A DNA stretch of 64,000 nucleotides, taken from positions 5,408,001 through 5,472,000 of the forward strand of contig OY762209.1 of the NCBI GenBank assembly GCA_963665295.1, given 5' to 3'. The position numbers were made by a program, and so were the translations under genes. Shown here piece after piece: positions 2,451 to 58,950 of the stretch. This DNA comes from Syntrophorhabdaceae bacterium (GTDB taxonomy: Bacteria > Desulfobacterota > Syntrophorhabdia > Syntrophorhabdales > Syntrophorhabdaceae). Each line of letters starts with the position of its first letter. Position 1 is the stretch's first letter. Under the pieces are notes generated by a model. That model did no database searches, was not told the DNA's origin, and worked only from the letters and a program-made list of their open reading frames with translations.

Positions 2451-4127
2451 TCATACTTCGTACCGTTCCACCATCTTCTTCAGTTTCTGTCCCAGTTCGT
2501 TCAAGTCGTGGGCCGCTCTTTCAGCCTGTCTCGTGCCCGACACGTTCTGCTGGGCCGCCGTCTTGATATTCTCCATGGCCAATGCGATCTGGTCCATGCC
2601 GGCAAACTGCTGCTGGCTTGACGCCGCGATCTGGGTGGCTGCCCGCGCCGATTCCGCGATGCTCTCCGCAAGCCTCCTTATGGATTCCCCGGACTCAGCC
2701 GCCTGCTTCACGCTCCCGTCTACCGCCTTGCTCACCTGTTCCGCCGCGAGCACGGACGCGCTGGTCGCCCGCTGTATATCGCCCAGGATGGCTCTCACCT
2801 GGGCCGTCGCCTGCTTCGACTGGTCCGCGAGGCTCCTGATCTCCTGGGCCACCACGGAGAAGCCTTTTCCCTGTTCCCCGGCCTTCGCCGCTTCTATGGC
2901 GGCGTTCACGGACAACAGGTTCGACTGCTGCGCGAGGTCGTTCACCACCGAGATGATCTCCCCGATGGCCTGTGTCTGCTCGCTCAGCCTCACGATGCTC
3001 TCCCCCACGGTTTCCATCAGTTCCCTGATATGGCCTGTTCCTTCCACGGTCTTTGCCACCGCCTCATTGCCCTGCTGGGCGACGGAAGCGGCCTTCTGAG
3101 CGCCCTCGGAGACGCTCCTCGACTTCTCCGCCGAAAGCTGGGCAGTCTGTTTGACTTCCTCCACCGTCGTCGTGGTCTCACTCACCGATGCGGCCGTTTC
3201 CGATGACACGGTAGCCAACTCGGTGGTAAGGGCGAGGATTTCCGCCACGGAAGACGCAAGCATGGTCGCCGCATCCTGCACCTGCTGGTTCAATGCCCGG
3301 AGGTTCTCCTCAGCCTGTTTGCGCTCCGTAATATCCCGGGCCGCGGCAAAGACACCCAGGATATTCCCCTCCGCGTCCTTGTATACCGATGCATTGTAAA
3401 GGACATGGGTCAGCTTTCCGGTCGAATGCCTGATGGTGAGAGGGTAATCGGTGACGAAGCCCCGCTCGAAGACCTGCCTGTATCCGTCGCTCGCCTTCTC
3501 CGGCTCGGTGAAGTAGTTTGAAAAATCCGTGCCTATGAGCCTCTCCCGGGCGACGCCGGTAACCCGTATGGTCGCCTCGTTGACGTCGGTGATCTTTCCC
3601 TCTGCACTGATGGTCACGAGGGGGTCAAGACTCGCTTCGATCAGGCTCCGGGCGTACTGGGAGGCCCGTCTCTGTTCGGTCACATCCCGGGCCGCGGCAA
3701 AGACACCCAGGATATTCCCCTCCGCGTCCTTGTATACCGATGCATTGTAAAGGACATGGGTCAGCTTTCCGGTCGCATGCCTGATGGTGAGAGGGTAATC
3801 GGTGACGAAGCCCCGCTCGAAGACCTGCCTGTATCCGTCGCTCGCCTTCTCCGGCTCGGTGAAGTAGTTTGAAAAATCCGTGCCTATGAGCCTCTCCCGG
3901 GCGACGCCGGTAACCCGTATGGTCGCCTCGTTGACGTCGGTGATCTTTCCCTCTGCACTGATGGTCACGAGGGGGTCAAGACTCGCTTCGATCAGGCTCC
4001 GGGCGTACTGGGAGGCCCGCCGGAGTTCCTCCTCCAGTTTGCCCGCGCTCATTCCCTGCGAGTTGGTGGTGGGTGAAGAAGCCTGTCCGGTCTTTTCCGG
4101 CGCCAGGAGATCTCGAAACAGTTTCAT
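2451..4127 (-). CDS. Cytoplasmic methyl-accepting chemotaxis protein with two PAS domains
   Basis: Two PAS-PAC repeats, MCP signalling motif NLLSVNAAIEAAKAGEQGKGFSVVAQEIR, no TM segment. Confidence 0.93.
   Translation of the reverse strand: MKLFRDLLAPEKTGQASSPTTNSQGMSAGKLEEELRRASQYARSLIEASLDPLVTISAEGKITDVNEATIRVTGVARERLIGTDFSNYFTEPEKASDGYRQVFERGFVTDYPLTIRHATGKLTHVLYNASVYKDAEGNILGVFAAARDVTEQRRASQYARSLIEASLDPLVTISAEGKITDVNEATIRVTGVARERLIGTDFSNYFTEPEKASDGYRQVFERGFVTDYPLTIRHSTGKLTHVLYNASVYKDAEGNILGVFAAARDITERKQAEENLRALNQQVQDAATMLASSVAEILALTTELATVSSETAASVSETTTTVEEVKQTAQLSAEKSRSVSEGAQKAASVAQQGNEAVAKTVEGTGHIRELMETVGESIVRLSEQTQAIGEIISVVNDLAQQSNLLSVNAAIEAAKAGEQGKGFSVVAQEIRSLADQSKQATAQVRAILGDIQRATSASVLAAEQVSKAVDGSVKQAAESGESIRRLAESIAESARAATQIAASSQQQFAGMDQIALAMENIKTAAQQNVSGTRQAERAAHDLNELGQKLKKMVERYEV
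3333..4019. repeat. Tandem intragenic duplication, 336-bp units (3333-3668 and 3684-4019), period 351 bp
   Basis: Direct comparison; the only mismatch seen is 3425 A vs 3776 C. Confidence 0.93.
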
Positions 4128-4145
4128 TGTGCAGCCTCCTTATAA

Positions 4146-4747
4146 TCATACATCCTCGTGGATAATGAGATTCTTGTCCGCCAGGAGCTTCCTTGCGTCC
4201 AGAACCGCCGTCCGCCCCGTCGTGACTCCAAAGAGAAATTCCTCGCGAATCCCCACGAGCGTGGGGAGGGGGGGCTGAATCTCCCTGAGAGGGATGGCGC
4301 GCACATGGAGTATGGAATCGGCGAGGATGCCGAATTCCATCGTGCCGTCATGGATGACAATCACCTTGTTGAGGTCGGTAATGCCCTGACCGGGCATGTC
4401 GAAAAATTTCCTGATATCGATGACGGATATGATCTGTCCTCTCAGGTTTACGAGGCCCAGGACAAAAGGGGGGGCGTGCACGGCACCGGTGTGTAATCCC
4501 TGATGGGATACACCTCGCGGACGTAGCTTGTCTCTATGCCGTATTGTTCCCCGCCAAGAAGAAACTCGACCACTTCAATACAGTCTTCCACTTTTGTCTC
4601 TTCGGGCTCCCTCGCGAGCCTTTCCGCCCGTGCCCTGAGGACCGCTTCCCGATCCAACCTCGCCGGCGAGTCTCCCTTTTCTATCCCTTCCCCGACTCGT
4701 TCCAAATGCTCACGGATCGCCTTCCAATCGATCTTCTCCGTGCTCAT
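4146..4747 (-). pseudogene. cheW: CheW protein split by a frameshift at a C7 homopolymer
   Basis: ORF 4448..4747 (EVVEFLLGGEQYGIE...PVPCTPP) continues in another frame as 4146..4481 (PPFVLGLVNLRGQIISVID); junction at G7 4468-4474. Confidence 0.85.
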
Positions 4748-18745: not shown

Positions 18746-19227
18746 TGGGAACAATCGTCGCGGACATAGAGAAGCTTAAGGAAATCATCGAGAAGAAGCG
18801 GAAGGAAGGAAAACGGATCGTCTTTGGAAACGGCTGTTTCGATATCCTCCACGTAGGACATGTACGATACCTCCAGGGGGCAAAGGCCCTGGGTGATCTC
18901 CTCGTGGTTGGAGTAAACGATGATTCCTCCGTGACCGGTCTCGGCAAAAGGAAGAAGGTGGTGACACCCGCCGCCGAAAGGGCGGAAATCATCTCCGCCA
19001 TCGATTGCGTCGATTATGTAACGGTTTTCGCCGATCCTACCGTAGAAAGGCTCCTCCTCACCCTGAAGCCCGACATACATGCCAAGGGCACGGATTACAC
19101 CGTGGATAACGTGCCGGAAAAGGACATTGTCCTCTCTTACGGGGGAAGAGTGGCCATAGTGGGCGACCCCAAGGACCACTCCACACGGGACATCATAAAA
19201 GTAATCAAAGGCATCGACACAAAATAG
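18745..19227 (+). CDS. Heptose-1-phosphate adenylyltransferase (RfaE domain II)
   Basis: NGCFDILHVGHVRYL, KGTDY, HSTRDII. Confidence 0.93.
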   Translation: MGTIVADIEKLKEIIEKKRKEGKRIVFGNGCFDILHVGHVRYLQGAKALGDLLVVGVNDDSSVTGLGKRKKVVTPAAERAEIISAIDCVDYVTVFADPTVERLLLTLKPDIHAKGTDYTVDNVPEKDIVLSYGGRVAIVGDPKDHSTRDIIKVIKGIDTK

Positions 19228-19233
19228 CCCGTA

Positions 19234-20313
19234 TCAGAAGGCGAATCCGTCTTCCCTGAACAACGAAAGGCACGCATCCACCGCTTGGGGATCGTAGAGG
19301 ACGCCTTTGTTCTCCTCAATCTCCTGGAGAGCAACATCTATGCCGAAAGCGGGACGGTAGGGGCGGTGCGACGCAATGGCCTCCACCACATCGGCCACGG
19401 CGATGACCTTTGCCTCGAGGAGGATGTCATCTTCCCGGAGCCCCATGGGGTAACCTGTGCCGTCCAGCCGCTCGTGATGCTGGAGGACTGCTTCCGCGAT
19501 GGGATAAGGCAGTTCCGCCTTGTTCAATATGTCATATCCCGACTGGGGGTGGACCTCGATGAGGGCCATCTCGATATCCATGAGGGCTGAAGGCTTCGTC
19601 AATATCTCAGTAGGCACGGACATCTTCCCGATATCATGGATCGTGCCCGCCATGCGGATATTTTCAACAGTATCCTTCGGTAACTTCATTTTCTGACCTA
19701 TGGACCGCGCAAGGCTCGATACCCTCTTCTGATGGCCCGCCGTGTAGGCGTCCCTCGTTCCCATGGTGAGGGCTATGAGGTTGATGGTGTTGATGAAGCT
19801 CCTTCTCAGCTTCTTCACGGTGGCCCTGAGTTCTTTTTCGTTCCGGGTGCTCTTGGTGATATCCCTCGCAATGGCGCAAATGCCCACCACGGCCCTTGCC
19901 GTATTCAGGATGGGGGAAACCGAGAGGGACAGGCGGACGAGGACGCCGTCCTTTCTTTTCCCCGTGGTGACGAAGTGTTCGCGGTGGTGGCCCGCTACTA
20001 TCTCCTTGACGACCTTGAGGGCCTCGGCCCTGTTGCCGGCAGGCAAAAGGGTGGATATGTTGCCCCCCGCCATCTCGTCGGAGGTATACCCGTAGATTCT
20101 TTCCGCTCCCTTGTTCCAGCTTATGACAGTCCCGTTTGTGGTGGTGCTGAAGATCGCGTCATCGGAGAATTTGATGATGTTGGTCAACAGGGAATCCCGC
20201 TGAAGGAGGCTCTGTTTTTGGAGGAGCTGTTCCTCCAACCGGACAATCCTCTCCTGTTGGCGTTTGATTGCCTGGAGTAACTCCCCTTTCGTCGCCTTAG
20301 AATTATACTCCAC
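19234..20313 (-). CDS. PAS-HD-GYP cyclic dinucleotide phosphodiesterase
   Basis: PAS (SWNKGAERIYGY), HDIGK, HHERLDGTGYP. Confidence 0.92.
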   Translation of the reverse strand: MEYNSKATKGELLQAIKRQQERIVRLEEQLLQKQSLLQRDSLLTNIIKFSDDAIFSTTTNGTVISWNKGAERIYGYTSDEMAGGNISTLLPAGNRAEALKVVKEIVAGHHREHFVTTGKRKDGVLVRLSLSVSPILNTARAVVGICAIARDITKSTRNEKELRATVKKLRRSFINTINLIALTMGTRDAYTAGHQKRVSSLARSIGQKMKLPKDTVENIRMAGTIHDIGKMSVPTEILTKPSALMDIEMALIEVHPQSGYDILNKAELPYPIAEAVLQHHERLDGTGYPMGLREDDILLEAKVIAVADVVEAIASHRPYRPAFGIDVALQEIEENKGVLYDPQAVDACLSLFREDGFAF

Positions 20314-39620: not shown

Positions 39621-41177
39621 ATGGAAGAAACGTCACTCAGGAAAGAAATCTTACCCCGAACGGAACCGGCCCCCGGGCTGCTCCTTGGATATCAGGCGTG
39701 CTGGGCCGCGGACCAAGCCTCTGTTAAGGTTTGCGAAAAATCGCGCCGGGTTGGCCTCTCCTGGGGAGAAGCGGCAGATTCGACCCTCTATGCCTCCGAG
39801 AAGGGAAACGGCGAAAAGAGGGACGTATGGTACATCGGATATAACAAGGACATGGCCCAGGAATTTATTAATGACTGCGCCAAATGGGCGCGGGCATACG
39901 ATAAAGCCGCCACGGCCATGGAGGTGGAAGAATATCAGGAAATAGACCGCGTGGAAAATGCCTCCGGGGAAGTGGTGGAGGAAAGAAACATTCTTGCCTA
40001 CAGGATAACCCTCGCGTCCGGCTGGAGGATAACCGCCCTTTCGTCCCGCCCCTCGAACTTAAGAGGCAAGCAGGGCAGGATCATCATTGACGAGGCCGCG
40101 TTCCATGAGGACCTCGCGGGCCTTATCAAAGCGGCGCTCGCCATGCTTATCTGGGGCGGGCAGGTTCATATCATCAGCACCCATTTCGGGGACTCGAACC
40201 CCTTCAATACCCTTGTCCAGGACATAAGGGCGGGCAAGAAGGCTAAATACAGCCTTCACCGTATAACCTTTGACGACGCCGTTGCAGACGGCCTTTACAG
40301 GCGGGTGTGCGAGGTCCTTCGCAAAGAGTGGACCGAGGCCGGGGAAAGCGAATGGAAACAGGAAATCATCGAGAGTTATGGCGACGATGCGGATGAAGAA
40401 CTGTTCTGCATCCCAAGTCAGGGTAGCGGTGTATGGCTCACCAGGGCGGTTATCGAAAAGTGCATGTCCGATGAGATACCCGTGGTCCGCTACGAGCAAC
40501 CGAAATCATTCGCGGAGATCGCGGACCATCTGCGCTTCGCAGAGGTGGCGGACTGGTGCAAGGGAACCCTTTTGCCTCTCCTCACAGAACTTGACCCGAA
40601 CAGGAATTCGTTCTTCGGTGAGGACTTCGGCCGTACAGGGGACCTGACGGATATCGTGCCCCTTCAGGAACAGCAGAATACGACGTTCAGGGCCCCCTTT
40701 GTTTTGGAACTGAGGAATATCCCCTTCACCCAGCAAGAGCAGATCCTTTTTTACGTTGTTGACCGCCTGCCGCGTTTCCGGCACGGTGCTCTCGACGCCC
40801 GGGGAAACGGTCAGTTCCTCGCAGAAAGGGCAATGCAGAGATATGGCTCCTCCCGGATCTCCGAGGTGATGATATCCGAGAGCTGGTACAGGGAGGCAAT
40901 GCCACGCTATAAGTCGGCCTTAGAGGACAAAGTCATTATGCTCCCCAAGGATTCGGACATCATGGAAGACCACCGGTTTATCAAGGTGGTCAAGGGCGTG
41001 GCAAAAGTCCCGGAAGGAAGAACCGCTGGCCAGGACAAAAAACAGCGCCACGGGGACGCGGCGATCGCGGGGGCAATGGCATGGTTCGCCACCTATCAGG
41101 AATCATGCGGGCCGATCGAATTCGAGTCGACCGGCAGGATCCGGGAATCCTTCAGAATGGAGGGCTATCTCTCATGA
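39621..41177 (+). CDS. Terminase large subunit (Mu gp28-like)
   Basis: EKSRRVGLSW, IIDEAAFH, GEDFGRTGD, RHGDAAIA. Confidence 0.93.
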   Translation: MEETSLRKEILPRTEPAPGLLLGYQACWAADQASVKVCEKSRRVGLSWGEAADSTLYASEKGNGEKRDVWYIGYNKDMAQEFINDCAKWARAYDKAATAMEVEEYQEIDRVENASGEVVEERNILAYRITLASGWRITALSSRPSNLRGKQGRIIIDEAAFHEDLAGLIKAALAMLIWGGQVHIISTHFGDSNPFNTLVQDIRAGKKAKYSLHRITFDDAVADGLYRRVCEVLRKEWTEAGESEWKQEIIESYGDDADEELFCIPSQGSGVWLTRAVIEKCMSDEIPVVRYEQPKSFAEIADHLRFAEVADWCKGTLLPLLTELDPNRNSFFGEDFGRTGDLTDIVPLQEQQNTTFRAPFVLELRNIPFTQQEQILFYVVDRLPRFRHGALDARGNGQFLAERAMQRYGSSRISEVMISESWYREAMPRYKSALEDKVIMLPKDSDIMEDHRFIKVVKGVAKVPEGRTAGQDKKQRHGDAAIAGAMAWFATYQESCGPIEFESTGRIRESFRMEGYLS

Positions 41178-41309
41178 AACGAAATATCAAAATATCGCCC
41201 ACGGGCCGTACAACAGGCTCCGTGAGGGTAAACATACGGGTCAAGCCTGTATCGTGCGATGTGGGGGAGTTTCAACGGGGTTTCAACGGTACTACAGGGG
41301 AGAGGGCAA

Positions 41310-42812
41310 ATGGCAGATAAGCTAAAACCGGTCCTTGACGAGATCGCCACTGTGGAAAAGGATATCTACCAGGACTACATTGGGAAGGTCCAGACCAACC
41401 CGGATAAGATATTGCGTTCCGAAGGACGCGGCAAGGGTATCGAGCTTTATGAGGATTTGCTCCGCGATGACCAAGTGGGATCGAACCTTAACACACGGAA
41501 ACTCGCCGTAGTTGGCAAAGAATGGGAAGTCGTTCCCGCCTCCGAGAAAAGAGCGGATCAGAAGATCGCCGATTTCGTCAAGGAAGTGCTCCTTGCGTGC
41601 AACTATGACGATGCGAGAAAGGCGCTCCTTTCCGGAATCGTCCTCGGCTTCAAACCCGCCGAGGTCATGTGGGAGTATTCCGAAGGGCAGGTATGGATAA
41701 AAGAAATCATCGGCAAGGCTTCCCGGAGGTTTGTATTCGACCTCACCCGTAGTCTTCGTCTCCTCACCCTTCAGAACATGATCGAAGGGGAGGAAGTCCC
41801 GGAATGTAAGTTCCTATGCTACACAAACGTATCTGACAACGGGAGCCCCTACGGGGACGCGCTTGGAAGGCTCCTCTACTGGCCCGTGTGGTTCAAGAAG
41901 AACGCGATCAAGTTCTGGATGGTCTTTGCCGACAAGTTCGGGAGTCCTACTGCAATAGGGAAGTATCCCCCCGGCACGCCCCAGGCCCAACAGGACGCCC
42001 TTCTATCGGCGATCGACGCCATACAGCAGGAAGCGGCCATCAAGATACCCGATAACGTGGACATATCCCTCCTGGAGGCAACGCGGGGAGGATCGATAAG
42101 CTGCTATGACGGCCTCTGCGCGTTCATGAACGCGTCCATTTCCAAGGTCCTCCTTGGGCAAACCTTGACCACGGAGATAGGCGGTACAGGCAGCTATGCG
42201 GCGAGCCAGACCCATGAAACAGTCCGGGAGGACTATATCAAGGCGGACGCGGACTCCCTGTCGGCCGCGCTCAACCGCCAACTGGTGCGCTGGATCGTGG
42301 ACTATAATTTCCCCGGCGTGACCCGGTACCCAAAGGTCTGGATCAGGACCGAGGGAGAGAAGGACCTCAAGCCACTCGCGGACCGTGACAAGCTTATCAT
42401 CGTAGACATGGGCGTGCCCGTAACCGCCGATTACATCTATAACACCTATGGGATTCCGAAGCCCGAGGACGGTGAGAAGCTTATAAATGCTCCTGCAAAG
42501 GAGCCTGTAAGCCCACAACCGGATCAGCCAAACCCACAAAATGATAAGTCCGCAAATTTTGGAGAGCAGACCTCCGGGATCGCCGCGCTTATCGAGGCGC
42601 AACGGAACATAGACGCTCTCACGGGTAATGCCGTGAAACAGGGTGAAATTGATCTCTCGGACCTGGAGAGAATTGTCGAGTCGGCGACGTCTTATGAGGA
42701 TTTGCAGTCAAGGCTTGCAGAGGCGTACCGGTCTATCGGTCTGGCGGAATTTCAACAGACCCTTGAACGGGCGCTGTTCATGGCGGGCCTGAAAGGCAGG
42801 GCTCTCCCATGA
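41310..42812 (+). CDS. Portal protein (DUF935 / Mu gp29-like)
   Basis: FADKFGSPTAIGKYP, ISKVLLGQTLT, GSYAASQTH. Confidence 0.92.
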   Translation: MADKLKPVLDEIATVEKDIYQDYIGKVQTNPDKILRSEGRGKGIELYEDLLRDDQVGSNLNTRKLAVVGKEWEVVPASEKRADQKIADFVKEVLLACNYDDARKALLSGIVLGFKPAEVMWEYSEGQVWIKEIIGKASRRFVFDLTRSLRLLTLQNMIEGEEVPECKFLCYTNVSDNGSPYGDALGRLLYWPVWFKKNAIKFWMVFADKFGSPTAIGKYPPGTPQAQQDALLSAIDAIQQEAAIKIPDNVDISLLEATRGGSISCYDGLCAFMNASISKVLLGQTLTTEIGGTGSYAASQTHETVREDYIKADADSLSAALNRQLVRWIVDYNFPGVTRYPKVWIRTEGEKDLKPLADRDKLIIVDMGVPVTADYIYNTYGIPKPEDGEKLINAPAKEPVSPQPDQPNPQNDKSANFGEQTSGIAALIEAQRNIDALTGNAVKQGEIDLSDLERIVESATSYEDLQSRLAEAYRSIGLAEFQQTLERALFMAGLKGRALP

Positions 42813-43954
42813 TCGAGTTCACCCCTCTTCCGTTTGATGAAGCAATCCGGTTTTTCGGGGATAAGGTAACCCTCGCTCCGGACAAATACAGAGCCCTCAC
42901 CGCAGAGGCCAGGGCGAAGGCGTTCACGGTGGCGGGCGTGGCGAAGATGGACGTGTTGACGGACCTCTACACGGGGATCGACAAGGCTATTTCGGAGGGG
43001 ACCACTTTCGCGGATTTTCAAAAGTCGGTGACGGGCATAATGGAGAAGCGGGGATGGACGGGGATGACGCCGTATCGTCTGGATAATGTCTTTCGCACCA
43101 ACATACAACAGGCGTATCAGGCCGGGCACTTTCAGAAACAGATGGGGCTCGCCGACCGCCGTCCGTATTGGCAGTACGTGGCGGTGATGGATTCCCGCAC
43201 CCGGCCCGCCCATGCGCGGATGAACGGTAAAGTGATGCGGTATGACGATCCATTCTGGGAAACGTCCTATCCGCCGAATGGTTTTAGATGTCGCTGCGCG
43301 GTGCGGGACTTGTCGGAGAGCGAGTTCGGGAGAGAAAAGTTGAACCTCACCGAAAATCAGGACTCCGTTGCCGACCCGGGGTTCGATACAAATCCGGGAG
43401 AAGCATACCGAGTGGACCTCGTCGCATGGGAAAAAGCGGAGAAAGCCCCTCGTCCGTTACAGGAAGCCTTCATGGACGCCATGGCAAAAGGGTCTCCCCG
43501 CAGGGCTGCCTTTGCAGATTGGGTTGACGAGATTGCCAAAGACAGAAAGGCGCGAGGAAAGACGAGTGTAATTGGATGGATGGACTCAGACACAATGAAT
43601 TACCTGACTCGGAATGACGTGCACCTGTCATCACCGGTAATTACCGCTAATGACAAGAGAATACTCCATACGATGCGAGAGGCAAAGGAGGCGAGAGGTA
43701 GCACTCTCTCCATCGAGGAGACAAAGGGCATCCCCGATGTTATCGCCGGATATGACGCGGTGCTGTGGGACACCGAAGACCCCGCCCTCGTGTATGTGTC
43801 GGCAGGGCGGGAACGCGACATCAAGATTGTCGTCAGAGTAAATTACAGGCTGAAAGGAGAACGGGAACCTGTCAATCTCCTTACGACCGCGGGGAAGGTT
43901 CAGAGAAAAAACCTCACAACGAAAAGATACCAGCTTATAAGAGGAGAATTATGA
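42809..43954 (+). CDS. MuF minor head protein with C-terminal extension resembling phage BECR-fold nucleases
   Basis: MuF motifs AFTVAG, RTNIQQAY, DSRTRPAH, PPNGFRCRC; extra ~140 aa with ILHTMREAKEARG...AVLWDT...LVYV...KIVVRVNY. Confidence 0.85.
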   Translation: MIEFTPLPFDEAIRFFGDKVTLAPDKYRALTAEARAKAFTVAGVAKMDVLTDLYTGIDKAISEGTTFADFQKSVTGIMEKRGWTGMTPYRLDNVFRTNIQQAYQAGHFQKQMGLADRRPYWQYVAVMDSRTRPAHARMNGKVMRYDDPFWETSYPPNGFRCRCAVRDLSESEFGREKLNLTENQDSVADPGFDTNPGEAYRVDLVAWEKAEKAPRPLQEAFMDAMAKGSPRRAAFADWVDEIAKDRKARGKTSVIGWMDSDTMNYLTRNDVHLSSPVITANDKRILHTMREAKEARGSTLSIEETKGIPDVIAGYDAVLWDTEDPALVYVSAGRERDIKIVVRVNYRLKGEREPVNLLTTAGKVQRKNLTTKRYQLIRGEL

Positions 43955-44060
43955 TGGGGCTGGAGGGGCGCCACATCCCTCATAGGGCGGTCAGCCTCGA
44001 CGAAATCAAGGCCTCATGTCCAACTGGCCACGGCGACTTTCCAGTTGTCAGCCCCATCAT
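43951..44060 (-). ncRNA. Putative ~110-nt structured antisense RNA (four-way junction)
   Basis: 12-bp terminal stem, three internal hairpins, G-U pairs favouring the minus strand, directly behind a consensus promoter. Confidence 0.7.
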
Positions 44061-44067
44061 TAGTCAA

Positions 44068-44095
44068 ATTATAACACAGCAAAAGGACGTGTCAA
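44068..44095 (-). promoter_or_regulatory. Perfect-consensus sigma70 promoter, antisense to the late operon
   Basis: Minus strand TTGACA-CGTCCTTTTGCTGTGT-TATAAT (16-nt spacer, extended -10 TG). Confidence 0.85.
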
Positions 44096-44530
44096 GTGGC
44101 CGATAGCTGGATAAGAGTTGAGATCAAAGACGAGGGGCTAAAAGACCTTCTCAAAAGCCTAAAGGAAAGAGTCGAGAACCCAGCCGAGGCGATGAAAGAA
44201 GTGGGTGCGATCGTCAGAAGCTCCATAATCAAGAATTTCCAGGAAAGCGGTCGCCCGGAGAAGTGGAAGCCGAAGAGAAAGCCCCGGCAAGGCAAAGTTC
44301 TCATCGACACCGCCCGGCTTCAGAACTCCATAAATTACAAAGCCTACGCGAACAGGGTGGAAATAGGTCCGGATGCAGTAGTCTATGCCGCCATTCATCA
44401 GTTCGGAGGCAAAGCAGGCAGAGGCCATAAAGTCACGATTCCCGCCCGACCTTATCTCGCGGTTCAGGATGAGGATTGGTCGGAGATCAAGAGGGTAATC
44501 GAGAACTATCTCACGAGGAGGAACGCATAA
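44096..44530 (+). CDS. Virion morphogenesis protein (Mu gpG-like)
   Basis: LIDTARLQNSI, YAAIHQFGG, IPARPYL. Confidence 0.92.
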   Translation: MADSWIRVEIKDEGLKDLLKSLKERVENPAEAMKEVGAIVRSSIIKNFQESGRPEKWKPKRKPRQGKVLIDTARLQNSINYKAYANRVEIGPDAVVYAAIHQFGGKAGRGHKVTIPARPYLAVQDEDWSEIKRVIENYLTRRNA

Positions 44531-45603
44531 TGCCAGACTACATCGAGCGCCGGTTCCCCGTCTTTAAGGCGGGCACGCATAAGGATTCGGATGGCAAGGA
44601 ACGGACCTGGACCCCGGCCGATCTGGACCATATGGTTTCGACCTACGATCCCACCCAGCATGAAGCTCCCGTGGTGATAGGTCACCCCAAAGACAATTCA
44701 CCGGCGTTCGGGTGGGTCAAAAATCTATCCCGGGAAGGCGACGTGCTCCACGCTCACGCGGAAATCTTCCCGGAGCTGGACGGCATGATACAGAAGGGGC
44801 TTTTCAAAAAGCGCTCCATTTCCCTCTATGAAGACGGGACGCTCAGGCACATAGGCTTTTTGGGGGCGAAGCCCCCTGCGGTTAAAGGACTCCCTGACAT
44901 TCAGTTTGGGGAAGGAGTTGAAACCACCATCGAGTTTACAGACTCGAACACCAAAGAAGGAGGTAACCGGATGAAGTTTTTTGACTGGATCAGACAGACA
45001 GCAGGAAAAGAGGGGGTGACCCTCGAAGATTTACCCACGGCGGGGGGAACCTTTTCGGAAGAGGAACTGAAGCGAAGGATCGATGCGGCCCGCAAAGAGG
45101 AACGAGACAAAGCGACAGCGGAATTCTCGGAGGCGCAGAAAAAGACGTCCGATGATCTGAAAGCTCGTGAGGAACGGATACGCACACAGGAGCTGGAAAC
45201 ACGCAAAACCCTGACAGCCTCATTCTGCGAGGCCCTCCAGAAAGAGGGAAGGCTGACACCCGCAATGATGAAGGTCGGCATGGGCATGACGAACTTTCTT
45301 GAGCAGATCGGCGCGATCGAGGCCACGATCGAATTCAACGAAGGAGAGAAGAAGCTCGCACAGACACCCCTTGAGTTCATGCAGGCGTTTCTCCGGGGGC
45401 TCCCGAAGGCGATAGAATTTGGGGAAGTTGCGACGGATGACAAGGATACTGGGCCGAAAGGTCAGGCGGCAGAAAAACTTGATCGTCTGACCAAGGCAAA
45501 AATGGGGAGCGACAAGGCTTTATCCTACGGAGCCGCATTCACCGAAGTGCAGAGCGAAAACCCCGATCTTGCCCGCGATTATGCGGAAGAGATCGGCAGA
45601 TAA
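44530..45603 (+). CDS. Prohead protease/scaffold (Mu gpI/Z-like), with internal start at 44971
   Basis: APVVIGHP, AFGWV, KKRSISLY, LRHIGFLGAKPPAVKGL; AAGGAGGT before in-frame ATG 44971. Confidence 0.88.
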   Translation: MPDYIERRFPVFKAGTHKDSDGKERTWTPADLDHMVSTYDPTQHEAPVVIGHPKDNSPAFGWVKNLSREGDVLHAHAEIFPELDGMIQKGLFKKRSISLYEDGTLRHIGFLGAKPPAVKGLPDIQFGEGVETTIEFTDSNTKEGGNRMKFFDWIRQTAGKEGVTLEDLPTAGGTFSEEELKRRIDAARKEERDKATAEFSEAQKKTSDDLKAREERIRTQELETRKTLTASFCEALQKEGRLTPAMMKVGMGMTNFLEQIGAIEATIEFNEGEKKLAQTPLEFMQAFLRGLPKAIEFGEVATDDKDTGPKGQAAEKLDRLTKAKMGSDKALSYGAAFTEVQSENPDLARDYAEEIGR

Positions 45604-45613
45604 GGAGGGACCG

Positions 45614-46375
45614 ATGAGCACGGAAAAGGCATTATGGGTGGAGTCCTACAAAGCAATCGAGGATTTGAGTAACGACAAGTACCGCTTCGTGGTCCTCACC
45701 GCGACAGGCGTGAGACGGCCGGACAATGAAACGGAAATATGCCTCGGCATACTTCAGAACGCGCCCGCCATCAACGAGGCGGCTGTAGTCATGCTTGCGG
45801 GACGAAGCAAGCTCGAAATGAATGACGCCCTGGGCCTGGGCGCGTTCGTAAAAGCGGAATACGTCTCGGCAACGGACGCAGGCAAAGGAAAGACCGCGGC
45901 GGCTGACCTCTCTCACGCAAGGGGGTATGTCGTCGAGGCCAGCGGAGCGGAGGATGACCTGGGCTCCGTGATTCTGTTGGGGCCGGTCCCCGCGATCACG
46001 CAGGACGCATGGCAGCGAACCACGGTCACGACGGACGCGACAGCGGGGGCGAAAACCTACACGGCGGCTGAACTTGTCGGAGGTCTCATACTCCGGGATC
46101 CAGCGGGAGGCAACAGAAACGACGTCTCGCCTGCGGCCGCTGATATCGTTGCGGCTATCCAGGGCGCGGTGGTCAAAAGTTCATTTGAATTCACCATCCG
46201 CAACACAGCGGATGCGGCCGAAACCATTACCCTCACAGCAGGGGCAAGCGTCACGCTATCGGGCACCATGACCATTGCGCAAAACAACAGCAAAAGATTT
46301 TTGGCCGTCGCGACCGATGTGGGCGCGGGAACGGAAGCCGTGACGATTTACAGTCTCGGCACAATCGTACATTAA
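45614..46375 (+). CDS. Head decoration/cement protein, two-domain
   Basis: AAGGAGG RBS; between scaffold and capsid genes; Ala/Gly/Thr-rich beta content. Confidence 0.65.
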   Translation: MSTEKALWVESYKAIEDLSNDKYRFVVLTATGVRRPDNETEICLGILQNAPAINEAAVVMLAGRSKLEMNDALGLGAFVKAEYVSATDAGKGKTAAADLSHARGYVVEASGAEDDLGSVILLGPVPAITQDAWQRTTVTTDATAGAKTYTAAELVGGLILRDPAGGNRNDVSPAAADIVAAIQGAVVKSSFEFTIRNTADAAETITLTAGASVTLSGTMTIAQNNSKRFLAVATDVGAGTEAVTIYSLGTIVH

Positions 46376-46389
46376 GAGGAGGATAGGAT

Positions 46390-47379
46390 ATGGGTGGACC
46401 GAATGCAAAAGAGTTGATCGTAGCGGGGCCTCTCCAAAACGTGAGTCTCGCGTACCGCAACAAGTCGTATATAGGCGACAAGGTATTTCGTATCCTGGAC
46501 AAGGTAGACCCGAGGGCAAAAATCGCCCGTTATCTCAAGGGATCGTGGTTCAGGGACGAAGCAGCTATAAGGGGAGCGGGCGGGGAAGCCCCTCGCGGAA
46601 CGTATGAGGTGGACTTGCTGTCCCTGGCGACAAAAGAGTATGCGTTCGCAAAGGAAGTGACCGATGAAGACAGACGGTTTGCGAAATCGCAGATGGCGCC
46701 ACCTCTTAAACCAGACCAGGACGCCATTGAATTCACCGCGGACAAAATAGACCTTTCAAAAGAGCGCAGAGTGGCGAATCTGGTGAAGACTTCATCGTGG
46801 ATAGACGGAAACGGGGCGGGCGGAGAGGACGCAGAGGGTCTGTGGTCGCCCGTGGGCGCGACAAACACCTTTCTCGCGGATATCAAAAAAGGCAAAAAGG
46901 CCGTTCAGAGCGGGACGGGAGTGACGCCCAATGCGCTCATTCTTGATTACGCGACCTATATAGGCCTGACAGAGGTGGAGTCCATCCTGGACAAGATCAA
47001 ATATACCCAGCGCGGCGTTTTAACGAGGGACCTCCTTGCCTCGCTTCTTGAACTGGAAGAGGTGCTCGTGGGTGAGGCCATAGTAAATACGGCGAAGGAG
47101 ACCAAAGCAGGGACGGAATTCACCGCCTCCTACGTTTGGGAAGTGAATGCAGGCAAGGGCATGGGTTTTCTCTTCTATCGTCCGCCCGCCCCGGGGCTCA
47201 AGGTTCCTGCCGCAGGGTATCAGGCCCGCGTCGCCTACGAAGACGGTCAGTCGAGACGCACCACAACCTGGAGGGAGGCAAGTCGTCACCAGGATGTATA
47301 TGAGGTCGCGGAAGAGACGGACATCGTGCAGACCGGTGCCGACCTGGGCTACCTGTTCAAAGATACGTTCGCAACGTAG
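46390..47379 (+). CDS. Major capsid protein (lambda gpE-like type)
   Basis: 329 aa; LQNVSLAYRN...ERRVANL...PNALIL; synteny. Confidence 0.85.
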   Translation: MGGPNAKELIVAGPLQNVSLAYRNKSYIGDKVFRILDKVDPRAKIARYLKGSWFRDEAAIRGAGGEAPRGTYEVDLLSLATKEYAFAKEVTDEDRRFAKSQMAPPLKPDQDAIEFTADKIDLSKERRVANLVKTSSWIDGNGAGGEDAEGLWSPVGATNTFLADIKKGKKAVQSGTGVTPNALILDYATYIGLTEVESILDKIKYTQRGVLTRDLLASLLELEEVLVGEAIVNTAKETKAGTEFTASYVWEVNAGKGMGFLFYRPPAPGLKVPAAGYQARVAYEDGQSRRTTTWREASRHQDVYEVAEETDIVQTGADLGYLFKDTFAT

Positions 47380-47386
47380 GAATGAG

Positions 47387-47406
47387 GGGCCGGGAAACCC
47401 CGGCCC
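47387..47406 (+). terminator. GC hairpin after the capsid gene (terminator or mRNA stabiliser)
   Basis: GGGCCGGG-AAA-CCCGGCCC; no U-tract. Confidence 0.4.
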
Positions 47407-47430
47407 ACCCTATGATGAATCGAGGAGATT

Positions 47431-47862
47431 ATGTATTGTACGATAGATGACATCAAGAAGCTCCTCCCGGAGGAGCTTCTGATTCAACTCACGGACGACG
47501 AGGGATTGAACCGGGTTAACGACGCCCGGGTCGATGAGGCGATCGCGCAGGCGGGCGCGGAGATAGACTCGTACTGCGCGACAAAATATGCCGTTCCCTT
47601 CGCTACGGTCCCGCCGATCGTCAAGAAATGTTCCGTGGACATGGCGATTTACAACCTCTATTCCCGGCGCGTGGAAAAGACACCTGAAACGCGGGTGGAC
47701 AGGTATAACAACGCGGTCAAGTTATTGAGCAATATCGCAAAAGGAGTGGTGTCGATCGGCGCGGACCCGGCCCCCACGGAGCAAGCCACAGGAGATCAAA
47801 TATCGGGAACGAAAGAAGCGAGTGACCGCGTTGTCACGCGATCGAAAATGAGGGGGTATTAA
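47431..47862 (+). CDS. Mu gp36-like (DUF1320) head-tail adaptor
   Basis: MYCTIDD...LIQLTD...EIDSY...DMAIYNL...RYNNAVKLL. Confidence 0.88.
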   Translation: MYCTIDDIKKLLPEELLIQLTDDEGLNRVNDARVDEAIAQAGAEIDSYCATKYAVPFATVPPIVKKCSVDMAIYNLYSRRVEKTPETRVDRYNNAVKLLSNIAKGVVSIGADPAPTEQATGDQISGTKEASDRVVTRSKMRGY

Positions 47863-48366
47863 ATGCCAGACACAATGGACCCGGGGTGGGGGAGAGACGA
47901 GTTCGGGGCGCAACCCTACGGCCAGTTTCTGGAAACCCTGCTTGCCATCGAGGAAGGGATCAAGGACGGAATAAGAGCCGCCATGCCCTATCTCAAGAAG
48001 GTCGAGACCTACGCGGGGCAACTCGAAGGCGAGATCGAAGAACTTACGATACTCTTTCCCGCGGTGTTCGTGAGCTATGGGGGGTCGGACTTTGAATGGA
48101 TCGACGGACAGAGTTTTCAGAATGACCCGGTTTTCAAGGTTATTGTAGTGGCAAAGGACCTTAGAGGCCAGACCGGCATGCGCGGAGGCGAATACGGGTG
48201 CTACAGGATGATTATCGACACTCTGAATGCGATCGCGAATTGCACTTTCGGGAAAGAGATACAACCCCTGAAGCCCGTAAAAGTCACGCCCCTCTTCATC
48301 AGCAAAGCGTTTGCCGCTTACGGCATAGATTTTCAAACGCAGTTTGATACAGCATACCCGCAATAA
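47863..48366 (+). CDS. Mu gp37-like (DUF1834) neck/tail completion protein
   Basis: VETYAGQL, FPAVFVSYGG; synteny. Confidence 0.75.
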   Translation: MPDTMDPGWGRDEFGAQPYGQFLETLLAIEEGIKDGIRAAMPYLKKVETYAGQLEGEIEELTILFPAVFVSYGGSDFEWIDGQSFQNDPVFKVIVVAKDLRGQTGMRGGEYGCYRMIIDTLNAIANCTFGKEIQPLKPVKVTPLFISKAFAAYGIDFQTQFDTAYPQ

Positions 48367-58465: not shown

Positions 58466-58643
58466 AATGGCGCGCAATTTACTTAGATGCCGGGAGGCAC
58501 TACCAGAGGGCATTTAGGTCCATTCTTGGTTTCCGATCTGAATTGGCCTGTCTATGGAAGTGTCTGAATTTATACGGGGAACGGTATAATGTTTGCCCCC
58601 GGCGACCTTTGTTCTTTTCTACAAATTAATTGGAGCCGCGGAA

Positions 58644-58782
58644 TAGGCGGCCGCACGGGACGGACACTTCAGATGGGTCAGGCTGTGAAGGGAGGCTGGG
58701 CGTCGTCGTACTCAAGTACGACAGAGCACGCCTCCCTTTGCAGAGTGGCCTATATGGAGCGTCCGTTCCGTGCGGCCGCCTA
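58644..58782 (+). repeat. 139-bp imperfect palindrome with TA termini (ERIC/MITE-like or ncRNA)
   Basis: TAGGCGGCCGCACGGGACGGAC...GTCCGTTCCGTGCGGCCGCCTA; pairing continues to the apical GTCGTAC-TCAA-GTACGAC. Confidence 0.8.
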
Positions 58783-58950
58783 AGGACTTGCATTACGGAA
58801 GCAACTTGCCCCATTTCAGCACCCAACCCACATTGCGCTCTTTTCCCGCTTTTCCGCTTTTCCCGCTTCTCCCCTTGCATTCGCAGAGGGATGAAGTAGA
58901 ATATCATCAGGCTCTGAAGATCCATACGAACTCAACGCAAGGAGGATCAT

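Follow-up and report, generated by a model that had tools for sequence, protein, structure and literature searches.

We analyzed a 64,000-nucleotide stretch (the window) of the genome of a Syntrophorhabdaceae bacterium (GenBank assembly GCA_963665295.1, contig OY762209.1, forward-strand positions 5,408,001 to 5,472,000). The window contains a Mu-like late region in which the portal gene, muF, a 141-nt gap, and gpG follow in this order. We found that the gap holds what we predict to be an independent small-RNA gene that lies against the late operon and has its own near-consensus sigma-70 promoter. The RNA belongs to a gene family and is not a product of chance. When 30 viral loci (many of them close relatives) were fetched by the C-terminal domain of MuF alone, 27 had an RNA candidate directly after muF and on the opposite strand (12 of the type in the window, and 15 tRNA or tRNA-like). 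We suggest, with a probability that we put at roughly 0.4, that the RNA is the cognate tRNA-mimic partner of the RNase-like MuF-C domain and most likely its inhibitor.

The RNA between muF and gpG

An earlier note on this DNA, made from the letters alone, had claimed a minus-strand promoter in the gap and an expected transcription start at the first base of a folded RNA. Both claims were borne out by the sequence. The promoter (TTGACA, a 16-nt spacer, and TATAAT with an extended -10 TG, 44095-44068 on the minus strand) is the sole site with 12/12 matching hexamer bases in 40000-48000. Promoter-like sites in that region numbered 4 (3.6 expected). The predicted +1 (~44061) adjoins the first base of the closing stem of the RNA (44060), such that the RNA begins seven bases past the -10. 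The spacer contains the Shine-Dalgarno sequence of gpG on the opposite strand. The features of the locus are listed below.

41259-42812, plus strand (late region): portal gene (PF06074)
42809..43954, plus strand: muF, minor head protein of 381 aa (Pfam PF04233, Phage_Mu_F, residues 57-165, E 1.7e-25)
43481..43951, plus strand: predicted MuF C-terminal domain, residues 225-381, MuF-C/PBECR-like (profiles, AF2 model, BFVD, alignment)
43951..44060, minus strand: putative tRNA-like small RNA, ~110 nt (fold, covariance-model matches, covariation)
44060-44049 / 43962-43951, minus strand: closing stem of the RNA
44047-44021, minus strand: hairpin 1
44013-43993, minus strand: hairpin 2, hypervariable
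43981-43963, minus strand: hairpin 3, with loop 1 pairing with loop 3
44068..44095, minus strand: predicted sigma-70 promoter (-35 TTGACA 44095-44090; TG 44076-44075; -10 TATAAT 44073-44068)
44096..44530, plus strand: gpG, virion morphogenesis (PF05069), with a start codon directly adjacent to the antisense -35 hexamer
43951..44106, plus strand: 51-codon open reading frame (ORF) behind AGGAG, judged not to be a gene (frames differ among copies; no Pfam match)

The minimum free energy structure of the minus strand of 43951-44060 is identical to the one described in the note, a self-closing RNA that encloses three hairpins. In this cloverleaf, a stem of 12 bp closes the structure and the hairpins have 7, 9, and 5 bp (dG -49.8, z -3.3; 4 of 200 shuffled sequences were equally good). 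By itself, this fold is only modestly better than chance. The argument for function is drawn from the relatives. The plus strand of the same interval folds otherwise and loses hairpin 2 (dG -47.7, z -2.9). Hairpin 2 and several pairs of the closing stem depend on G-U pairs on the minus strand, and the argument that these pairs work on that strand only holds. The complementarity pointed out between loop 1 (CGCCGU) and loop 3 (GUGGCG) is also present. The RNA forms a four-way junction with an acceptor-like closing stem on which hairpin 3 is stacked like a T arm. Hairpin 1 takes the place of the D arm and hairpin 2 that of the anticodon arm, and the pairing between loops 1 and 3 is elbow-like.

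The window RNA matches no Rfam family. A search of 43700-44300 against Rfam 15 (E<=10) gave four matches, none at the gathering score. Three were outside the RNA, and the fourth (ncS16, 13.1 bits with a threshold of 48, 43903-43976 on the minus strand) overlaps only its 3' end. ARAGORN made no tRNA call on the window RNA, and the Rfam tRNA model (RF00005) gave no match at E<=10. No tandem repeats were found in 43800-44250.

We searched viral contigs, species genomes, and metagenomes with DNA patterns from the element. Copies were found in viral contigs (L025, L026, L029, and L031), in species genomes (a Ca. Magnetominusculus contig with the same sequence as L031, and L072, a metagenome-assembled genome of Syntrophorhabdus), in metagenomes (L075, L076, L077, L080, and L084), and elsewhere in the window's own genome (L021). 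The close set comprises 10 distinct full-length sequences including the window; L029 is additional and is cut at a contig end. Three loci from the metagenome scan (L074, L079, and L083) were false copies, and a 16-mer pattern gave 38 loci, mostly by chance. The promoter-block pattern had 0 matches in viral contigs, and a blastn search of the phages collection with the locus matched nothing beyond 70 nt of gpG.

Among the close copies, no variation is seen in hairpins 1 and 3, in their loops, or in the junctions. Hairpin 2 is wholly different in sequence and length, yet is always a hairpin. The promoter is kept in 10/10 copies (TTGACA, a spacer of 16 nt or, in L031, 17 nt, TGn, and a TAnnnT -10). 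It is retained where there is no Shine-Dalgarno sequence or following gene start (L075-L077), and before another gene (L026). Where the minus-strand downstream flank is non-coding (L026 and L076), a run of U directly follows the closing stem.

We built a covariance model (R1) from nine close copies and ran it with filters off. Covariance models added eight divergent viral contigs and Pseudomonas phage B3 to the 10 close copies; among nine divergent copies, five have promoter-like sites (9-10 of 12) 4-11 nt upstream. The window scored 124 bits on the minus strand and 17 bits on the plus strand. An alignment of 16 rows (A5; 15 of the sequences are distinct) has pairing in 93.3% of its cells, and both sides have changed in 22 of 27 pairs; these counts lean towards the structure because the alignment was fitted to the model. 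Double changes are visible in the raw sequences too, outside this fitting. The covariation score was 0.54, compared to 0.17 in shuffled alignments (0 of 500 reached 0.54) and at most 0.13 with slid partners. Covariation among homologues, which the earlier note had expected, was thus found. The evidence for the helix between loops 1 and 3 is suggestive: 90.8% of it is paired with 2 double changes, and by eye one locus (L092) has a further compensatory change.

The MuF C-terminal domain and its association with the RNA

R1 matched the minus strand directly after the MuF domain at E<0.05 in 12 of the 30 loci fetched by the domain (L088, L089, L090, L091 (partial), L092, L093, L094, L096, L097, L104, L112, and L114). 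The match in L103 had an E of 0.58. The 15 loci with a tRNA or tRNA-like gene are L095, L098-L103, L105-L108, L110, L113, L115, and L116. At the same place and strand in R1-negative loci, ARAGORN called tRNA-Val(UAC) in L108 and an odd tRNA in L110. The Rfam tRNA model gave 35.6 bits in L106 (threshold 29) and 27.9 bits in L108, and Rfam also gave a tRNA-Sec-like match in L110 (32 bits) and matches to T-arm fragments in L098 and L101. The tRNA and T-loop calls were on the minus strand only. These relatives at the same spot support the claim that the window RNA is tRNA-shaped.

The remaining tRNA-like genes of the 15 were read by eye. Those of L095, L100, L102, L103, L105, L113, L115, and L116 share one T-loop design with Pasteurella phage AFS-2018a: a 6-8-bp acceptor stem, a short D-like arm, a variable hairpin, a YAUKAU junction (AUGAU/AUUAU), and a T arm that carries a GGUUCGAAUCC-type loop. 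The variable hairpin is often closed by a tetraloop and has no anticodon loop, as is the case for most members of the RNA family. In a cloverleaf consensus from eight sequences (six viral loci, L108, and AFS-2018a), 11 of 23 pairs have double changes.

A second model (R2) matched an RNA in Pseudomonas phage B3 (49 bits, E 6.6e-13) and, more weakly, in Campylobacter phage CAM-P21 (E 0.013). The B3 RNA lies under the annotated 32-aa ORF34 (L120 1775-1873) and the CAM-P21 match under an annotated 30-aa ORF (L123 1171-1263), each on the opposite strand. These tiny "hypothetical protein" ORFs are probably mis-annotations. R2 gave marginal matches (E 0.003-0.43) in L006, L013, L017, and L110, and we therefore do not claim homology for those gaps.

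The MuF protein of the window matches the Phage_Mu_F profile (PF04233) with 90.4 bits (gathering cut-off 29.6, Pfam profile search). The earlier note had given it ~140 extra residues after the PPNGFRCRC core. There are actually ~215, and the last 157 of these (residues 225-381) form one confident domain (AF2, pLDDT 86.6). We compared this domain with the MuF-C and PBECR families (PF18819 and PF18812) and with structures. It matches Pfam PBECR3 only weakly, with 16.5 bits (E 0.008), below the cut-off of 30. With the MuF_C profile, the domain of L106 scores 28.7 bits (cut-off 27.6) and that of L098 scores 27.3 bits, just below. In BFVD, 16 matches had E<=0.001 and TM 0.5-0.78, with names that include "Phage MuF C-terminal domain-containing", "PolyVal", and "Nuclease". 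Foldseek against the PDB gave nothing at E<=0.001, and a sequence-profile search of the PDB gave one irrelevant match, to FtsZ. In a PDB-wide VIA search, the top rows were nearly all BECR RNase toxins (BrnT, RelE, colicin D tRNase, CdiA-CT, and colicin E5), but only with Z 4-4.9.

Residues D58, H63, K69, and T136 (domain numbering) are invariant. H63 and T136 are found in 8/8 sequences, and H63 lies in helix 58-64. PBECR domains have a signature of His plus Thr/Ser (Iyer et al. 2017, PMC5512222), which H63 and T136 of the window match; the domain half of the finding is thus already known. The same source regards MuF-PBECR as the simplest architecture, predicts packaging and injection of the protein, and describes the copy in Mu gp30 as inactive. 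By sequence and structural model, then, the tail of MuF is predicted to be the published MuF-C/PBECR domain, BECR-fold and RNase-like. The BFVD matches and the conserved D/H/K/T support the earlier proposal of a BECR-type nuclease-like extension.

The RNA tends to be found with this domain and its conserved His. Short MuFs abut gpG without a gap in 5/5 cases (L005, L011, L012, L015, and L018). Three of the 30 loci have no RNA: L109 and L111 have no gap, and in L117 none was seen in only 258 nt after the stop codon. The MuF-C bearers that lack both a gap and the conserved His are phage Mu (where F and G overlap), L109 and L111, and JBD18. B3, a phage of JBD18's genus, carries the His as well as the RNA, whereas JBD18 has neither. 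The His is kept in 27 of 28 RNA-bearing rows, and the alignment of the remaining one (L113) is doubtful.

MuFs with a PBECR2-type domain (G002, 80 bits; L007, 76 bits) also have a gap of ~110 nt before gpG. These gaps (L022 1420-1530 in G002; ~3718-3830 in L007 and L008) contain a minus-strand promoter-like site. The G002 gap ends in a promoter block like that of the window; the sequence of the gap is different and is not tRNA-like. Between this gap and that of a second prophage, we saw by eye one compensatory change (CGCGC/GCGCG to CGUGC/GCACG). The folding energies of the gaps in L007, L008, L013, L016, L017, and G002 were not significant (z -2.2 to +2.2). As a separate observation, L002-L004 have long MuFs with another C-terminal extension. 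To judge by inspection of the raw sequence alone, the stretch after them (~3964-4230) looks like the end of a minus-strand coding gene rather than a gap of the size of an RNA.

Copies of the RNA gene at sites without muF

The copy elsewhere in the window's own genome is in a CRISPR array. A 496-nt fragment (G000:C1:2446076-2446571; L021 ~1487-1982), with 81% identity to window 43715-44199, fills the interval between the last two of the 26 repeats, at the leader-distal end; the end of cas2 and the leader are on the other side. The other 24 spacers of the array are 34-35 nt (with a 27-nt repeat definition). The fragment contains the 3' end of muF with two frame-breaking deletions, the whole RNA, the intact promoter, and the first ~100 nt of gpG. 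Its junction was also found in a run from another study and is therefore not an assembly artefact.

Three other spacers of this array match the chromosome that carries it: spacer 17 (G000:C1:2445587-2445621) matches 2487341-2487374 (34/34), spacer 24 matches ~2.513 Mb (30/32), and spacer 13 matches ~2.4927 Mb (28/32). This might indicate self-targeting of another resident element.

A second context is metagenomic. L081 1308-1620 (the same in L077, L078, and L073) has a ~250-bp fragment, made up of a remnant of the muF 3' end, the RNA, and the promoter, that is flanked by 32-nt direct repeats that are 91% alike and 281 nt apart from start to start. No further copies of these repeats were found within the 3 kb examined. 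Rfam detected no CRISPR-repeat family in L081 or L021; it missed the true array too, and so is uninformative here.

The third context is a second Mu-like prophage (G000:C1:1748385-1748676; L023), in which muF is reduced to a 55-codon C-terminal remnant of PBECR2 type and the 5' part of gpG is missing. It keeps the promoter block and a gap sequence like that behind the intact PBECR2-type muF of G002. A promoter-bearing RNA gene that is kept in three decayed contexts would look like an "orphan immunity" gene, although this is not proof of such a role.

We note two other repeated sequences in the window. Window 58485-58836 has >20 matches elsewhere in the genome (72-91% identity, including tandem copies near 0.617 Mb). 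It is a short repeat, present in multiple copies, at the border of the prophage region. Window 19226-19833 has about a dozen paralogous matches in the genome (65-74% identity) and belongs to a multi-copy gene family.

Possible functions of the RNA

In the reading that we prefer, the RNA would mimic a tRNA: its conserved acceptor, elbow, and junction would contact the RNase-like domain, which the RNA would keep inactive as a pseudo-substrate. It would do so in the cell that makes the late proteins, in lysogens, and soon after transcription of an incoming genome. The RNA would fill the place of the downstream immunity protein behind other MuF-toxin fusions; a protein is taken as immunity behind other MuF-BECR fusions, so an RNA at that position would be a natural analogue. 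The earlier note had considered a decoy; an anticodon decoy is unlikely because hairpin 2, at the position of the anticodon arm, is hypervariable.

A broader version of this proposal is possible but rather doubtful. In it, the virion-delivered BECR RNase (MuF-C) would be checked by a tRNA-derived RNA made from an immediate, constitutive phage promoter, and orphan copies would have been captured by hosts or rival elements as protection against the injected enzyme. The candidate orphans are the 496-bp fragment in the CRISPR array, the repeat-flanked metagenome fragment, and the copy in the muF-less prophage.

Several points weigh against RNA inhibition of MuF-C. Because many of the 30 loci are close relatives, they do not count as 30 independent events, and the A5 pair counts carry the bias described above. 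Ralstonia phages RS138 and YO088_1 keep the D/H/K motif but lack a gap, and in the whole record of RS138 neither a tRNA nor a model match was found. The earlier note's expectation that the RNA occurs only with extended MuFs stood in that it is mostly found with the domain and its His; it failed for the repeat-flanked fragments and for two other copies. One of these (L026) lies between a gemA-like gene and mor in a Mu-like early/middle region, on a contig that is only 20% complete and contains no muF. The other (L076) is away from muF, and its neighbours have no Pfam match. That the window type and the T-loop type are homologous is an inference from their place, strand, and architecture and from the YAUGA junction (before hairpin 3) that they share; it is not demonstrated. 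The pair types favour the minus strand only mildly (15 G-U, 9 A-C); we assign the RNA to that strand because of the promoter and the tRNA-like relatives at the same spot. Sequencing runs were searched for the window locus, and none of those that contain it is an RNA run. Three wastewater runs labelled RNA-Seq had contigs of 151-167 nt with only relatives of the element; one run was flagged as probably DNA, and we do not take these as evidence of expression. Finally, the need of a virion protein for an antidote in a lysing cell is an argument and not a result.

The RNA might instead be ribonucleoprotein cargo or a cofactor, bound and perhaps cut by MuF-C and packaged and injected with it as an anti-defence effector rather than an inhibitor. 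This too would account for the finding of the RNA with the domain and its His. Binding of RNA by the inactive domain of Mu has been proposed, as have packaging and injection of MuF-PBECR proteins (Iyer et al. 2017, PMC5512222); a phage anti-CRISPR complex of a protein and a tRNA fragment exists (PMC11662646), and the complementary loops of the RNA could pair between molecules. However, cargo leaves the promoter-bearing copies at muF-less sites unexplained, and mere binding predicts that His-less domains should also have the RNA, yet they do not. We consider it unlikely. To a similar degree we doubt that the RNA is an autonomous tRNA-like small RNA (a moron) directed at the host, as a decoy or substitute for tRNA-targeting defences or tRNA-binding enzymes, for which the muF site is merely permissive. 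It is a self-contained unit with a promoter and, where coding constraint is absent, a U-run after the stem; it is found beside mor and in an unrelated context (L076); L108 looks like a usable tRNA-Val; and the gpG region is a known accessory-gene site in Pseudomonas Mu-like phages. In contrast, a merely permissive site does not fit the finding of the RNA at exactly this place and strand in 27/30 loci chosen by the domain, nor its absence from all five short MuFs and from the His-less MuF-C phages, and most members have no anticodon loop.

A role in cis is less probable still. Between muF and gpG, the transcript and the late mRNA are perfect complements, and the promoter overlaps the ribosome-binding site and start codon of gpG, such that antisense pairing at the F-G junction, or interference of the promoter with late transcription and gpG initiation, could tune or silence late genes in lysogens. 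However, sequence and structure are kept where the flanks differ (L026 and L075-L077), and the stem covariation and the tRNA-like relatives point to a folded, trans-acting RNA. The loops of C4-type antisense immunity RNAs (P1 and P7) are complementary to targets located elsewhere in phage mRNA. This C4-like alternative, raised in the earlier note, found no support in a search of the window: sites complementary to the loops are no commoner there than expected by chance (4 compared to 1.9 expected, and 9 compared to 8.1). We think it very improbable that the functional element is a small protein encoded by 43951-44106 or a plus-strand mRNA structure or terminator. The gap had been described as free of an immunity-sized ORF; a 51-codon ORF with AGGAG and ATG does exist there, tiny ORFs were called here by the annotators of B3 and CAM-P21, and the plus strand folds too. 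However, the ORF has no Pfam match, and its protein is not conserved. Hairpin 2 changes in length by numbers of bases not divisible by three, which puts the invariant bases into differing frames among the copies; an ATG is missing from L031, and in L021 the ORF is frameshifted at its C-terminus. The ORF is thus not the conserved thing. A plus-strand structure is at odds with the G-U pairs of the minus-strand fold, with tRNA and T-loop calls confined to the minus strand, and with the model scores of the two strands.

The RNA resembles tRNA (RF00005) in its four-way junction, acceptor-like stem, stacked T-arm-like hairpin, and elbow-type loop contact, and it has relatives with a T-loop motif. 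Unlike tRNA, the window RNA has a 10-12-bp closing stem and neither a T-loop motif nor an anticodon loop. In type III toxin-antitoxin systems (ToxIN), an RNA neutralises an endoribonuclease by pseudo-substrate binding, and this RNA consists of tandem repeats upstream of the toxin gene. The window RNA would likewise neutralise an endoribonuclease. In contrast, it has no tandem repeats, is tRNA-shaped, and is downstream and convergent, and the RNase would be a domain of a virion protein. The pRNA of phi29 is a phage RNA of ~120 nt with two complementary loops that is tied to head assembly proteins. The window RNA shares the complementary loops and the link to head assembly proteins; there is no sequence or family match, and the tRNA-like relatives argue for intramolecular pairing of the loops.

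The MuF-PBECR/MuF-C polyvalent fusions described previously (Iyer et al. 2017, PMC5512222) have the same domain in a protein predicted to be injected. The passages of that paper on PBECR, MuF-C, and immunity have no RNA partner, whereas here a conserved antisense tRNA-like gene appears to follow. In MuF-DUF6883/BECR-Tox3 with DUF4926, the downstream protein is taken as immunity (bioRxiv 10.64898/2026.08.28.747851). As described there, that system also has a MuF N-terminus, a toxin-like BECR C-terminal domain, and a small conserved gene directly downstream; in contrast, the gene downstream here is predicted to encode no protein but an RNA, from its own promoter and on the opposite strand. A literature search found no paper on an RNA gene behind muF, with most subscription journals and supplements outside its scope. 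What appears to be new is the association of RNA and domain in 27/30 loci. The domain architecture, tRNA-like RNAs of phages, and RNA antidotes of RNases are already known.

Phage B3 of Pseudomonas aeruginosa PAO1 (which has the RNA) and its relative JBD18 (which lacks the RNA and the His) are a matched pair, making the question directly testable. Toxin-like tails on MuF-type proteins are common across phages. If our reading is correct, a conserved tRNA-mimic RNA at the position of an immunity gene would be a new form of control of a protein RNase, and the RNA would be a new family absent from Rfam. It would also offer a way to probe by experiment what the MuF C-terminal domain, predicted in 2017, does.

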